Shown: in pieces, positions 28,901 to 34,973 of the stretch | Numbering within the stretch: position 1 is the stretch's first letter | How the letters are laid out: each line of letters starts with the position of its first letter | The notes under the pieces: model-generated | The model's input: only the letters and a program-made list of their open reading frames with translations | Databases searched by the model: none | What the model was told of the DNA's origin: nothing | Position numbers and translations under genes: made by a program | Assembly (NCBI GenBank): GCA_947588955.1 | Contig: CANPYX010000004.1 | Span: forward strand, 6,421-70,420 | Length of the DNA: 64,000 nucleotides | Reading direction: 5' to 3' | DNA from: an uncultured Oscillospiraceae bacterium | GTDB lineage: Bacteria > Bacillota > Clostridia > Oscillospirales > Oscillospiraceae

Positions 28901-29989
28901 ATGGCCACTATGACAGCGGCTCAGGTCAAGGACCTGAAGACGAAAATCAAGGCGCTGATGACGCAGCGCAACGGGTACGGGTCACTTTCCACTGACACCG
29001 GGTACAATTACGCCGTGAAGGACTCGGCGGTGAATTACGCCGGCTCCGCTTACGACTTTTCCACGTCTCCCACATCGGGCGGAACGGTCCTCGCGGAGCA
29101 CGGGCAGAAGACCGTGAATCTGCTGCTCAGAATAGCCGAGCACGGGAACCTCAAGAAGGTGGCAAAGGGCGAACCCATCCCCTCAAGCTTCGACTCCTCC
29201 CTCATAACCTATGTTAACACCCTGGCGGGAGAGAGCATGACGGGGACGACCACCAGCTGCCACGGGGCGTGTACGGGGCTGTGCGCGAAGACGTGTTCCT
29301 CTCAGTGCTCCGGGTGTCAGGGCGGCACGTCGGGGGCATACCGCGGCAGCAATTGCGGCGGGTGTTCCGGCACCTGCGGGACGGGGTGCAAGAGCGGATG
29401 CGGAGGGTGCAGCACAAGTTGCACCGGATGTACAGGCTGCAGTAATATGTGCTCCTCCGGATGTTCCAGCTGCTCCAGCGGGTGTTCTGGCGGTTGCGTG
29501 GGCTGTACAGGGTGCAGGTCTTGTGACGGCCAGTGTTCTGATGCCTGTTCCGGTTGTTCCGCCTCCTGCGGGAGGAAGGTGTCCAGCGGGTGCAGCGGAT
29601 CTTCATGTGGAGGCACTTGTAGCACAGGCTGTACGGGGTGCTGGGGGCACTGCGTTACAAGCTGCTTGGGTTGTAGAGGGGACTGCGGCGGCAGTTGTTC
29701 CAGTGGGTGCGAAAGTAGCTGCAGCGGATGCTCTTATGCCTGCGGCGGCAGTTGCGCGGTCCAATGTTCGGGGTGTAAGGGCTGTACCGGCTGTGATTCC
29801 TGCGGCGGGTGCTCCGGGTGCTCCGGCTGTGGCGGGACGAGCTGTTCGGGCTACTGCTACGGCAGCTGCTCCTCCTGTTCGGGGTGCTCCGGCTCGTGCC
29901 AGAAAAACTGCTCCTCCGCCTGCTATACCACCTGCTCCGCCACCTGCTGGGGCAACTGCAAGGGCACGGCGGACAGTTTGAATTCTTAG
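28901..29989 (+). CDS. CXXX-repeat hyper-cysteine protein 1 (putative radical SAM target)
   Basis: ~125-aa N-domain, then ~235 aa with 61 Cys (my count) spaced CxxxC/CxxC. ATG 5 nt after the fibre stop. Confidence 0.8.
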   Translation: MATMTAAQVKDLKTKIKALMTQRNGYGSLSTDTGYNYAVKDSAVNYAGSAYDFSTSPTSGGTVLAEHGQKTVNLLLRIAEHGNLKKVAKGEPIPSSFDSSLITYVNTLAGESMTGTTTSCHGACTGLCAKTCSSQCSGCQGGTSGAYRGSNCGGCSGTCGTGCKSGCGGCSTSCTGCTGCSNMCSSGCSSCSSGCSGGCVGCTGCRSCDGQCSDACSGCSASCGRKVSSGCSGSSCGGTCSTGCTGCWGHCVTSCLGCRGDCGGSCSSGCESSCSGCSYACGGSCAVQCSGCKGCTGCDSCGGCSGCSGCGGTSCSGYCYGSCSSCSGCSGSCQKNCSSACYTTCSATCWGNCKGTADSLNS

Positions 29990-30028
29990 TATCGGCATTT
30001 ACCTTGAAAATTCAATAAAGACAGCGGA

Positions 30029-30057
30029 TTGACAAAATAAGACCCACGCCGTATAAT
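30029..30057 (+). promoter_or_regulatory. perfect consensus promoter TTGACA-17-TATAAT
   Basis: TTGACA at 30029-30034, 17-nt spacer, TATAAT at 30052-30057. Confidence 0.7.
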
Positions 30058-30180
30058 AGCGGCATGGGCTTCCCCGCAAGGGGGAGGATCGGGAGTACCC
30101 GATCTGGAGATCTCCGTTCCTTTAAAACGGGGCGGTTAAAAAGACGGTGCCGATAACCCGCGAAAGCGGGAGGGAGGCGT

Positions 30181-30321
30181 GTGACAGCTTTCGCGGGAAA
30201 TTTTCCCGAAAGGAGGCTGGTACATATCACTGTTACACTGTTGGAGATCCTCGGCGCTGCCGGTGCCGTGGCCAGCATTGTTTCCTTAGCGCTCTATCTG
30301 CGCGACAGGAAAAGGAAGTGA
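30181..30321 (+). CDS. small hydrophobic peptide, type I toxin-like (start uncertain)
   Basis: Manual translation: (V)TAFAGNFPERRLVHITVTLLEILGAAGAVASIVSLALYLRDRKRK. GGGAGGGAGG lies before GTG 30181. A second SD, AAAGGAGG at 30209, sits in a hairpin arm. Confidence 0.3.
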   Translation: MTAFAGNFPERRLVHITVTLLEILGAAGAVASIVSLALYLRDRKRK

Positions 30322-30421
30322 GCCGTCTGTCGCAATCAGACGGCTCACTGTTTGGTTTGGGGCTGCAACCCCGAGCTAAATAGTTGGTACGTACACTTGT
30401 GGCACCGTTTAACGGTCTCCA
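30310..30421 (-). ncRNA. candidate antisense RNA (type I antitoxin-like), inferred from promoter and terminator only
   Basis: A - strand consensus promoter at 30428-30456 fires toward the peptide gene 3' end. The transcript would share the 30318-30348 hairpin. Confidence 0.35.
30318..30358. terminator. 12-bp-stem hairpin plus T-rich tail, usable from both strands
   Basis: GTGAGCCGTCTG-TCGCAAT-CAGACGGCTCAC, then TGTTTGGTTT. On the - strand it is followed by TTCCTTTTCC. Confidence 0.65.
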
Positions 30422-30427
30422 CCCATT

Positions 30428-30456
30428 ATTATACGGTCAGGGTCACGAAATGTCAA
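30428..30456 (-). promoter_or_regulatory. perfect consensus promoter TTGACA-17-TATAAT on the - strand
   Basis: On the - strand: TTGACA (30456-30451), 17-nt spacer, TATAAT (30433-30428). Confidence 0.65.
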
Positions 30457-30463
30457 TACCTTT

Positions 30464-32788: not shown

Positions 32789-32843
32789 GGAAATACCCCC
32801 ACCCCTTTTTGGGCGGTGGAGGAGCGCGGAGCGGTGAAGGACT

Positions 32844-33506
32844 ATGGGTATAACTGTAAAGCTTGATCTGGTCACCGACAGGGAGGCGAGACATGTATAC
32901 CGGGTCGACGCTCTGCGGCGCGCCGGCTGGGAGGCAATGACCGCCGCCGAAAGGCTGGAGTGGTGGCACGGGCTGTCGGACGAATATGTTTACTGGCGGG
33001 AGGGGACGCCGGTCACCTGCCTTGACGGTGTGATCGTGTTCATCGCCACAGGGGACATAAACAAGGGCGCCTACAACTACAAGGATTGGAACCGGGTGGA
33101 GGGCACCGCGGAGTACCTGGCGGGGATCCTGCGCGGGCTGCCGGAGCTTTTGCGCGAGCACGCGAGGGAGCACGGCGTGGCGTGGGATACGGCGCTGGAT
33201 GTGCCGTATGATCCGGAGGACTTCCGGCTTACGGTGAAGACGGACTGGGCGATGGAGGACATCCCCACGCCCGGACAGCTGGATAGGTACCTGGAGAACG
33301 TGAGGAGGCTCAGAGGGGCGCTGGAGTACGAGACGGAGGAGCTGCCGGCGACCATGGCGGTGCTCACCTACGCCGGCGCCAACGCCATCGAGAGGGCGCT
33401 TTTGGGGCTGGGCTTCGCCATCGAGGACTTCCACACCTGGCGGGACGTGGAGAACATTGAAAAGAGCTGCGTTTATTCAGACGACGTCTTTTCGGGGGAG
33501 GTCTGA
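32844..33506 (+). CDS. hypothetical fibre-module protein
   Basis: KGAYNYKDWNRVEGTAEYLAGIL-type motif, seen (from memory) in Firmicutes phage fibre-associated proteins. Confidence 0.5.
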   Translation: MGITVKLDLVTDREARHVYRVDALRRAGWEAMTAAERLEWWHGLSDEYVYWREGTPVTCLDGVIVFIATGDINKGAYNYKDWNRVEGTAEYLAGILRGLPELLREHAREHGVAWDTALDVPYDPEDFRLTVKTDWAMEDIPTPGQLDRYLENVRRLRGALEYETEELPATMAVLTYAGANAIERALLGLGFAIEDFHTWRDVENIEKSCVYSDDVFSGEV

Positions 33507-33528
33507 ATACCCCCCACCTCTTTCGCGC

Positions 33529-33545
33529 GTGTCCGATTCGGACAC
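33529..33545. repeat. 17-bp palindrome GTGTCCGATTCGGACAC (perfect)
   Basis: Read directly. Intergenic cassette. Confidence 0.9.
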
Positions 33546-33595
33546 AAAAATACCCCCACCCTCTTTTGGGGGAGGAAAAAACGGAGTGATCGCAA

Positions 33596-33973
33596 ATGAA
33601 GGACAGAATCCCTACTTATCCCAACCGGGTGCGGCTTGTGCCGGTGCCGGGAAGGGACGGGTATTATGACGTGGAGCGCGCGGACGAGCCGACCCAGGAG
33701 GGGACGAAGCTCAACAAGGCGACGCTCCTCACCGATGAGACGGCGGCGGCTGTGAAGGCGGCGCGTCCGGGCTTTTCGGGGGAGGTGGACACCGTCAACG
33801 ATGCTCTGGCGGCACTGGCGCTGGGAGGCGTGAGCGCGGGGGCGTCGGAGCCCGGTGACAAGTCCGGGCTGTGGGTGGACACCTCCAACGGCGCCGGCAA
33901 GGGCGTGCTGAAATATTACGACACGGCGCTGGGCAAGTGGACGCCGGTGTGGTCGGTCTGGGGGGTAAAGTGA
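33596..33973 (+). CDS. short tail fibre-like protein
   Basis: N-terminus IPTYPNRVRLVPVPGRDGYYDVERADEPTQEGTKLNKATLL is typical of Firmicutes phage fibre N-termini. Confidence 0.6.
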   Translation: MKDRIPTYPNRVRLVPVPGRDGYYDVERADEPTQEGTKLNKATLLTDETAAAVKAARPGFSGEVDTVNDALAALALGGVSAGASEPGDKSGLWVDTSNGAGKGVLKYYDTALGKWTPVWSVWGVK

Positions 33974-33974
33974 G

Positions 33975-34973
33975 ATGGCGGAGAGCTACAACACCTTTTC
34001 CCCGGACCGCGTCAGAGCCCTGAAGGACGCCGCCAGAGCGGAGGTAAAGCGCAGGAAGGGGTACGGTTCGCTCTCCGAGGACACGGGCTACGGCTACGCC
34101 CAGAGGGGCAAGACGGTGGACTACTCCTCGGAGAAGTTCGAATTCGACGTTCAGCCCGCCCCGGGGGAGGGGATAACCGTGGACCACGGGGAGAAGACCG
34201 TGGACATACTGCTGAAAATAGCGGAGCACGGGGATCTCACCCATGCCGCAGCAGGAGAGCCCATCCCCTCGGACTTCACCGAGGAGCTTATAACCTATGT
34301 CAACACCCTGGCGGGGGAGAGCATGACGGGGACGGTCACCAGCTGCCACGGGGCATGTACGGGGCTGTGCGTGGGCACCTGCTCCGACGGGTGCTCCGGC
34401 TGCACGGGGTCGGGCGCGTCGAACACCGGAGGATACGGCTGCAACGGGTGCTCCGCCGCCTGCGGTAACTCCTGCGGCACAAGCTGCGGGGAGGGCTGCA
34501 GCGGGAAATGCAACTGGACCTGTGAGATTCAATGCTCCGTAGACTGCTCGGGCTATTGTCATCAGACATGCAAGTCGGGGTGTATCGGCGATTGTCGATA
34601 CGAATGCGGCGGAACCGAGAAGGGTACGCCGTCAAACTGCAGCAACTCCTGTCAGACGGCCTGCTATTACACCTGCGCCATTGACTGCCAGGGCAACTGC
34701 CGGACGGGGTGCGCGAGCTGCGACTACGGCTGTGACGGCTTCTGCTGGGGCGCTTGTATGGGCGGCTGCCTCAACGGGTGCGGCGAGTGCGAGGGCTGCG
34801 CGGGGTGCTCCGGGTGCGGCGGAGGCTGCTCCGGGCGCTGTTACGGCGGCTGCGACACCGCCTGTCTGGGGTGCTCGGGGAATTGCGAGGGCAGGTGCCT
34901 CAATTCCTGCTTCTCCACCTGCTCCGACACCTGCTACGGCAGCTGCAATGGCACGGCGGACACCGTACAGTGA
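33975..34973 (+). CDS. CXXX-repeat hyper-cysteine protein 2 (putative radical SAM target)
   Basis: Paralog of 28901..29989. Same N-domain (GYGSLS..DTGY, HGEKTV..LLKIAEHG, LITYVNTLAGESMTGT.TSCHGACTGLC). 49 Cys (my count), mostly CxxxC. ATG 2 nt after the fibre stop. Confidence 0.8.
   Translation: MAESYNTFSPDRVRALKDAARAEVKRRKGYGSLSEDTGYGYAQRGKTVDYSSEKFEFDVQPAPGEGITVDHGEKTVDILLKIAEHGDLTHAAAGEPIPSDFTEELITYVNTLAGESMTGTVTSCHGACTGLCVGTCSDGCSGCTGSGASNTGGYGCNGCSAACGNSCGTSCGEGCSGKCNWTCEIQCSVDCSGYCHQTCKSGCIGDCRYECGGTEKGTPSNCSNSCQTACYYTCAIDCQGNCRTGCASCDYGCDGFCWGACMGGCLNGCGECEGCAGCSGCGGGCSGRCYGGCDTACLGCSGNCEGRCLNSCFSTCSDTCYGSCNGTADTVQ

Follow-up and report, generated by a model that had tools for sequence, protein, structure and literature searches.

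The 64,000-nucleotide (nt) window analysed here (contig CANPYX010000004.1, positions 6,421 to 70,420, GenBank assembly GCA_947588955.1) comes from an uncultured Oscillospiraceae bacterium, and bases 1 to ~36,540 of it are a co-directional prophage. Between the collagen-like tail fibre gene and the endolysin gene of this prophage lies a gene for a radical S-adenosylmethionine (radical SAM)/SPASM maturase of 440 amino acids (aa; 30952..32274, + strand). It is preceded by the gene of a 141-aa companion protein (30530..30955, +) and bracketed by the genes of two extremely cysteine-rich proteins, CysA (362 aa; 28901..29989, +) and CysB (332 aa; 33975..34973, +). A first-pass annotation made from the sequence alone had flagged these four open reading frames (ORFs), placed them within a prophage tail-fibre module, and proposed that the Cys-rich proteins are enzymatically modified virion or fibre components. 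All four ORFs lie on the + strand, exactly at the coordinates that it gave, and PHROG matches for terminase, portal, head, tape measure, fibre and endolysin genes bear out the setting. No exporter or peptidase genes were found between 25656 and 36105.

The maturase ORF carries the radical SAM motif CX3CX2C that the annotation had pointed out, VTDACNLRCTYCYQ (DACNLRCTYCY; C38, C42 and C45). The SPASM-like set of cysteines noticed at the same time (C284, C302, C352, C355, C361, C364 and C383) is invariant in four phage homologues, and the Pfam SPASM match of the enzyme was sub-threshold (18.7 bits vs. 21.5). When the enzyme was compared with the NCBIfam radical SAM models for CXXX-repeat systems, as the annotation had suggested, TIGR04115 was passed and was the best family (463.7 bits, cutoff 350, E = 5e-139, model positions 3-359 of 359). 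The second-best family was PapB (NF047865), with 163.5 bits against a cutoff of 340; scores were 109.9 bits for the SCIFF maturase (cutoff 425), 94 bits for QhpD (TIGR03906; cutoff 453) and 93.8 bits for HxsB (TIGR03978; cutoff 370). The annotation had named a best match to anSME or another unrelated SPASM family, with no conserved linkage to Cys-repeat genes, as grounds for abandoning its proposal; anSME (TIGR03942) scored 55.2 bits against a cutoff of 349, and these grounds therefore fall away. As candidate families of the enzyme, anSME, the SCIFF maturase, HxsB and CcpM were all rejected, being far under their cutoffs. Among PHROGs, the enzyme matched phrog_1802 (E = 2e-68).

The closest solved structure was that of CteB (5WGG), in which chain residues 92-421 aligned with query residues 23-369. 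Alignments to other models of maturases bearing a RiPP (ribosomally synthesised and post-translationally modified peptide) recognition element (RRE) began at profile positions ~73-97. Because all of these alignments start past the N-terminus, the window enzyme lacks an N-terminal recognition domain; the first ~90 residues of CteB, which are missing from it, form an RRE domain. The TIGR04119 domain was absent from the enzyme and from the neighbouring ORFs. The nearest characterised relatives of the enzyme (PapB, SCIFF maturase, QhpD and CteB) are thioether-forming enzymes.

With regard to the presumed substrates, CysA consists of a ~119-aa N-terminal domain (N-domain) and a 234-aa Cys region with CxxC/CxxxC spacing that is rich in Gly, Ser and Thr, and CysB of a ~123-aa N-domain and a 201-aa Cys region with mostly CxxxC spacing. 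The two proteins contain 61 and 49 cysteines, precisely as had been counted by hand, and the paralogy assumed for them is reflected in 45% identity over their full length (E = 9e-104). The 108 Cys-to-Cys gaps of the pair fall at i+3 (30), i+4 (72) or elsewhere (6), the intervening residues are mainly Gly, Ser and Thr, and the period-4 autocorrelation of CysB persists past lag 30. A total of 230 database proteins share this layout, with a ~105-aa N-domain followed by C..xC.G.C and then by 17-126 Cys, and 3776 of their ~3900 gaps are of 3 or 4. Judged by this recurrence, chance is excluded as the source of the Cys spacing in CysA and CysB.

Searches of CysA and CysB against NCBIfam and Pfam returned zero matches even at E <= 10, to which the composition filters of HMMER may contribute; in PHROG, CysA had a weak match to phrog_6085. 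Neither protein matched TIGR04114, TIGR04117 or TIGR04118, which are models of short precursors, and the homologue P0092 reached only E = 0.04 and 5e-4 with the short-precursor models, under their cutoffs. A faint match to the newer Pfam family PF27846 ('tSAM_targ_Cxxx_rpt') was seen in some homologues. No signal peptide was detected in CysA or CysB. In the AlphaFold2 (AF2) model of CysB, the N-domain forms three helices with a predicted local distance difference test (pLDDT) score of ~90, and the Cys region is unstructured (pLDDT < 50), a prediction that fits a region needing modification or oligomerisation to fold. Foldseek searches with this model gave nothing significant in the PDB and, in BFVD, family members only, labelled 'TNFR-Cys domain-containing'. 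No match to CysB emerged from a tblastn search of 50,697 phage records, for which low-complexity filtering and a lack of cultured relatives are probably both partly responsible. Short relatives also occur, such as proteins of 193-215 aa in L001 or L003. The domain order is reversed in some relatives (locus L095, 11930-12928; locus L101, 11148-11894), where the Cys repeats come first and are followed by a globular domain bearing an N-domain-like motif (..LKNAMDNEYRRRG..); the gene lies 3' of the enzyme gene there.

The companion gene is coupled to the maturase gene in the way first described, its TGA stop overlapping the ATG of the enzyme (GCATGAGG). Its conserved core of ~97 aa is predicted as strand, helix, helix, strand, strand, with two long helices (AF2; pLDDT ~95 for residues 1-100). 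The C-terminal 44 aa (residues 98-141) are variable and Pro/Gly/Ala-rich, contain three Cys, and were predicted at low confidence; close relatives of 121, 111, 99 and 98 aa have a shorter extension or none. No NCBIfam or Pfam model matched the companion, and Foldseek and profile searches of the PDB returned only generic helical hairpins (E > 0.4) with no RRE or PqqD match, so that its identity as a discrete RRE is unsupported by fold. The companion occurs at the same position in most related loci, and one natural fusion joins a target to a companion (P0035, locus L171). Its constant position, the translational coupling and this fusion suggest that it works with both enzyme and substrate, possibly as a substrate-presenting subunit.

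Both Cys genes begin directly behind an upstream partner. The ATG of CysA lies 4 nt past the stop of the collagen-like fibre gene (551-aa ORF, 27241..28896, +; Pfam Collagen E = 1e-15, phrog_5073 E = 6e-21), for which gene callers place the start at 27556 and whose product ends in ...AKAVWG. The ATG of CysB lies 1 nt past the stop of a 125-aa ORF (33596..33973, +) whose product has the C-terminus LWVDTS..KYYD..W..VWGVK. The last 53 aa of this protein match the C-terminus of a 794-aa protein that is encoded upstream of the Cys-repeat gene in locus L030. The earlier statement that each target lies directly 3' of a fibre gene is thus correct for CysA and has to be amended for CysB, whose partner has only the fibre C-terminal motif and is not recognisable as a fibre. 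Across all loci, the motif W[IV]DT..KY[YF]..W..[WF]G ends 31 of the 3149 predicted proteins, and an N-domain Cys gene follows directly after 27 of these 31, across 12 radical SAM lineages. A fuller version of ~35 aa (..AP...LWIDT..G...KYYNG..W.....VWG) is found on otherwise unrelated fibre proteins. The carriers range from 86 to 843 aa and include proteins of loci L003, L004, L007, L034, L086-L090 and L094, among them a fibre with collagen repeats (L003) and, in L088, a protein whose N-terminal domain is of the tail-collar fibre type (PF12571). No Pfam model covers the motif, which we regard as a candidate docking element.

The related loci were drawn from bacterial genomes, of which one per species was scanned and its genes mapped, and from IMG/VR, which was scanned with an alignment as query; a single-protein radical SAM query against IMG/VR found nothing. 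The alignment-based scan detected at least 277 IMG/VR contigs that encode relatives of the enzyme (44-64% identity), and grouping of the related loci at 85% enzyme identity gave 40 clusters, which we treat as lineages. A Cys-rich ORF stands beside the enzyme gene, on the same strand, in 80 of the 85 related phage loci, and the position in the tail module is conserved; the survey of co-occurrence and position called for in the first-pass annotation thus upholds the association. The usual order is tail genes, N-domain Cys protein, in some cases a ~170-200-aa ORF, companion, radical SAM enzyme, and further fibre or lysis genes, with the Cys gene directly 3' of the enzyme gene in some lineages. 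The ~170-200-aa ORF proved not to be a detached TIGR04119 domain, and it matched no PHROG.

For the pair of genes preceding the module (92 proteins), all named PHROG families among the 25 most frequent were tail fibre, tail, baseplate, tail collar fibre or minor tail proteins, and the two downstream genes (82 proteins) matched endolysins most often. According to Pfam annotation, the Cys protein follows the tape measure protein, Dit, Sipho_Gp37 and a 797-aa protein in a sipho-type locus (L004). In a podo-type locus (L003) it follows a P22-type portal, capsid, and 635-aa and 843-aa proteins, and in a myo-type locus (L171) it follows a sheath initiator, Baseplate_J, Mu Gp48 and a 216-aa protein. 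Locus L086 comes from a cultured strain, Neglectibacter timonensis SN17, and has a 66%-identical enzyme. In four viral contigs (L069, L070, L084 and L085), the radical SAM gene and its neighbours were broken into many short ORF fragments when genetic code 11 was applied, which could reflect stop-codon recoding or poor assembly.

Our survey separated two architectures. In the bacterial branch, an enzyme of 720-735 aa has TIGR04115 fused to TIGR04119 ('CXXX_matur'), as in L105 (~727 aa; 483.3 bits for TIGR04115 and 233 bits for TIGR04119), and is accompanied by one or two leader-plus-core peptides of 50-86 aa with 7-14 Cys and by ABC-type exporters. Loci of this classical type are L102-L109, L111 and L115, with exporters or peptidases noted in L102-L109. 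In the branch of the window, an enzyme of ~430-480 aa without TIGR04119 has a ~95-aa companion encoded just upstream and targets of 170-800 aa with a folded ~120-aa N-domain. As a control, we looked for homologues of neighbouring genes in the IMG/VR loci: loci with 720-735-aa enzymes had none and unrelated radical SAM loci had at most one each, whereas most second-branch loci in bacterial genomes have several such neighbours. Beside several bacterial-branch loci (L102, L107 and L111) there is a companion-like ORF of ~90-110 aa, and the companion may be an unmodelled core component of both branches.

These comparisons change two points of the first-pass annotation. It had equated the trio with the CXXX-repeat system of NCBIfam, which holds for the radical SAM enzyme (TIGR04115) and fails for the remainder, since TIGR04119 is absent and the companion and Cys proteins match no model. 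It had also treated the phage context as an oddity of this locus; instead, it is the rule for the whole ~440-aa branch, a branch separate from that of the bacterial RiPP enzymes of ~725 aa.

Further evidence came from domain fusions in relatives. Two homologues (P0067 and P0071) carry a ~190-aa insert in the N-domain that matches CBM_4_9 and, among PHROGs, 'host range and adsorption protein', tail protein and PblB receptor binding families, and in locus L066 a Cys-repeat region and an ALK_LTK glycine-rich domain occur together in one 816-aa protein. In another pair (P0003 and P0004), the N-domains share 95% identity and the Cys regions 99%, but the C-terminal domains (192 and 136 aa, respectively) only 28%, a mosaic pattern that is the signature of exchangeable receptor-binding heads. 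The position in the tail module, the linkage to Cys genes and these fusions support a fibre or virion component over a secreted RiPP.

Elsewhere in the prophage, there are PHROG matches to a DnaB-like helicase, a ParB-like protein, terminase large subunit, portal, major head and tape measure proteins. The tape measure gene (22965-25259) and a 565-aa distal tail protein (phrog_13879) belong to the tail genes. Between the maturase and the 125-aa ORF there are two genes to which we assign no function. The first, a 101-aa ORF directly 3' of the maturase (32461..32766, +), had no family match in NCBIfam, Pfam or PHROG scans and has same-position homologues in L086, L087 and L088 (30-38% identity). 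The second, a 220-aa ORF (32844..33506, +), matches phrog_18725 (E = 6e-7) and is retained in the sister prophage described below. Past CysB, the start of the lysis cassette (35069..36105, +) marks the distal end of the tail module and comprises a small protein with one transmembrane segment (35069-35305, +) and an Amidase_2 endolysin (35302-36105, +; phrog_15001 E = 2e-37, PF01510). A tRNA-Ser(GGA) gene (36773-36864, - strand) lies ~230 bp past the last phage ORF and beside metG, followed by host genes, and is the probable integration site.

The gap of 540 bp between CysA and the companion is occupied by an embedded cassette (30029..30489), which does not belong to the maturase system. It contains two convergent, perfect sigma-70-type promoters (TTGACA-17-TATAAT) at 30029-30057 (+) and 30456-30428 (-), an AGGAGG site (30213-30218), an ORF for a small hydrophobic peptide that ends at 30321 (...LEILGAAGAVASIVSLALYLRDRKRK), and a bidirectional terminator with a 13-bp stem (30317-30349). 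A second, terminator-like hairpin on the + strand has a 12-bp stem followed by TTTTATTTTA (30462-30489). This layout resembles that typical of type I toxin-antitoxin systems with a convergent antisense RNA. No riboswitch and no known RNA was found when the gap was scanned against Rfam, and a SAM riboswitch was dropped as a candidate on the same result.

A sister prophage (L169, assembly GCA_947627285.1) shares the gap cassette, companion, maturase, 220-aa ORF, 125-aa ORF and CysB. In its gap, the promoters, leader and terminator are near-identical; the peptide DNA has diverged, and the peptide is still hydrophobic with the same YL.DRK.K end. CysA is missing from L169, where the collagen fibre is longer and is succeeded by proteins of 301 and 163 aa, and the endolysin (CHAP) and integration site differ. 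Homology with the window resumes exactly at the gap promoter, and CysA is therefore an exchangeable add-on to one fibre, as expected of host-range modules. Comparison of window 27040-27225 with L169 5760-6040 also showed two frame-changing differences. Near 27044, a short divergent stretch with a net loss of 1 nt makes the 565-aa distal tail ORF read through a TAG stop, and near 27210, just past the fibre ATG, there is a 1-nt insertion (CCGTAACCG vs. CCGT-ACCG), as a result of which the fibre ORF restarts at 27241. These differences may be due to prophage decay, real variants or assembly errors.

On balance, we lean towards the view that the Cys-repeat proteins are fibre-tip components stapled by the radical SAM enzyme, and that the module is a phage branch of CXXX-repeat maturation that builds part of the tail fibre. 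The sequences establish to which family the enzyme belongs, how the genes are linked and placed in the tail module, which domains are fused and that the Cys genes pair with the upstream motif; we infer the thioether chemistry, what the companion does, docking, and presence in virions. CysA and CysB would be made in the cytoplasm, and their folded ~120-aa N-domains would dock on the C-terminus of the fibre protein whose gene precedes theirs, on the collagen-like fibre for CysA and on the 125-aa WIDT..WG protein for CysB. The 440-aa radical SAM/SPASM enzyme, which has no RRE of its own, would work with the ~95-aa companion core presenting the substrate. By analogy with PapB, CteB and QhpD, we propose that many thioether staples are formed along the CxxC/CxxxC array, the spaced cysteines being converted to intramolecular thioethers of the ranthionine or sactionine type. 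The product would be a covalently stapled Cys/Gly/Ser-rich rod or cap at the fibre tip, insensitive to redox conditions and proteases, and in some phages this rod would also bear a receptor-binding head or an inserted carbohydrate-binding module. The broader idea that tailed phages of strict anaerobes encode a radical SAM enzyme of their own, by which dozens of cross-links (thioethers or others derived from Cys) are introduced into a fibre-tip protein, is one that we hold more tentatively, at slightly less than even odds.

Nonetheless, several observations weigh against a stapled fibre tip. In the NCBIfam, Pfam, PHROG and phage-record searches, CysA and CysB showed no homology to known fibre families and no C-terminal head. 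A conserved acceptor residue comparable to the Asp in the CXXXD repeats of PapA is not evident between the cysteines, and the +4 position, which is Asp in PapA, is itself Cys in the CysA and CysB repeats. The slot before the lysis genes can also hold accessory genes. No cultured phage was found with the system, the close matches in the phage collection being two unannotated metagenomic contigs only, and the companion fold resembles no known RRE or chaperone in the PDB. Finally, the + strand hairpin at 30462-30489 stands directly 5' of the companion ribosome-binding site, and expression of companion and maturase may therefore need antitermination or read-through.

Some of these observations would suit an explanation that we consider unlikely, namely that the Cys-repeat protein binds metal or Fe-S clusters, or serves as a non-virion scaffold or chaperone of fibre assembly, and that the radical SAM enzyme carries out another modification or only a few cross-links. 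Dense CxxC/CxxxC arrays with Gly and Ser are typical of metal-binding sequences, no conserved acceptor residue is apparent, AF2 was unable to fold the Cys region, and the position right after fibre genes is the usual place of fibre chaperones. However, such a role leaves the strict co-inheritance with a thioether-type radical SAM maturase unexplained, and the adsorption and carbohydrate-binding inserts and swapped C-terminal heads of the relatives look like exposed parts of a virion.

Somewhat less probable still is that the module is an accessory 'moron' making a giant RiPP-like product, which would be released at lysis or act in the lysogen as a toxin, competitor inhibitor or host-interaction factor. 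This would be in line with the exported Cys-rich peptides that the enzyme family otherwise serves, with the frequent location of the module at the junction of tail and lysis genes, with the dispensability of CysA in L169, and with the independent toxin-antitoxin-like cassette in the same gap. It is difficult to reconcile with the absence of exporter, peptidase and signal peptide, with targets of 170-800 aa that have a conserved folded N-domain, and with a module inside a co-directional late structural operon that is followed by further fibre genes in several phages; the pairing with fibre C-terminal motifs and the adsorption-module fusions would also go unexplained. A superinfection-exclusion or antiphage system like HXS, in which a radical SAM-matured repeat effector blocks phage DNA entry, has a precedent in a matured repeat protein acting against phage (PMC13128918) and in the distant HxsB match of the enzyme (93.8 bits), but we regard it as highly improbable given that this score is far under the cutoff of 370, that the targets have Cys rather than HxS repeats and no signal peptide for the periplasm or cell wall, and that the late tail operon position is conserved in three morphotypes.

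If the stapled fibre-tip reading is correct, it would link radical SAM enzymology with phage biology, as the phage would harden its own host-recognition apparatus. To our knowledge, the substrates described for RiPP-type radical SAM maturases are small secreted peptides and a single enzyme subunit (QhpC), and CysA and CysB would be the first radical SAM-modified structural proteins of a virion. The product would be a protein rod of a new, covalently stapled kind, in which as many as ~126 cysteines are modified, and the stapled repeat could attract interest as a material. A large part of the orphan 'CXXX-repeat' family would acquire a natural role, and TIGR04114-04119 would gain a testable substrate and function. 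Enzyme-installed covalent chemistry would be added to the means of fibre stabilisation, in a form that fits the gut, which is anoxic and rich in proteases. The module is common in gut viromes and varies in length and head domains as host-range determinants typically do; it may therefore have a bearing on how host ranges are predicted and gut phages engineered.

The gene order and architecture are analogous to those of the gp38 adhesins at the fibre tips of T2/S16-type phages. The gp38 gene comes right after the fibre gene, and the protein has a largely helical N-terminal attachment domain and a glycine-rich, repetitive distal domain with variable segments. Polyglycine-II sandwiches that lack cysteines are used in gp38, which requires no maturase. 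The likeness is limited to analogous order and architecture, and no sequence or fold similarity to the Cys proteins was detected.

Among radical SAM maturases, PapB forms six Cys-Asp S-C-beta thioethers in the CXXXD repeats of PapA, giving freyrasin (PMC12373016), and CteB forms a Cys-Thr S-C-gamma link in thermocellin (PMC11002830). The window enzyme is of the same radical SAM/SPASM type and its presumed substrates contain repeated Cys motifs; unlike those of PapB and CteB, these substrates have 49-61 Cys, carry Cys rather than Asp at +4, and are full-size proteins. QhpD introduces Cys-Asp/Glu thioethers into QhpC, a protein subunit that is retained in its complex and not exported (PMC11002830), and is thus a precedent for the structural use of thioether links. 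In contrast to the window targets, QhpC is small, has few links, is not viral and is not a repeat protein.

The nearest relative of the module is the CXXX-repeat system itself (TIGR04115 and TIGR04119 with TIGR04114, TIGR04117 and TIGR04118), which was defined in silico and has had no experimental characterisation. The two agree in that the window enzyme passes the TIGR04115 cutoff and the targets share CxxC/CxxxC spacing with small residues between the cysteines. They differ in that the window module has neither TIGR04119 nor an ABC exporter, it is surrounded by tail fibre and lysis genes where the classical system has transporters, and its targets are proteins of 332-362 aa with a folded N-domain rather than 50-86-aa peptides. 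In the literature searched, which left the founding TIGRFAMs paper outside, we found no description of a phage-tail link for this pairing of a radical SAM enzyme with Cys-repeat proteins. Since in silico definitions of the radical SAM family and of its Cys-repeat targets date back years, the kind of system is not new; what appears to be undescribed so far is its separate phage branch and architecture, its systematic placement in tail modules, and its pairing with fibre C-termini.

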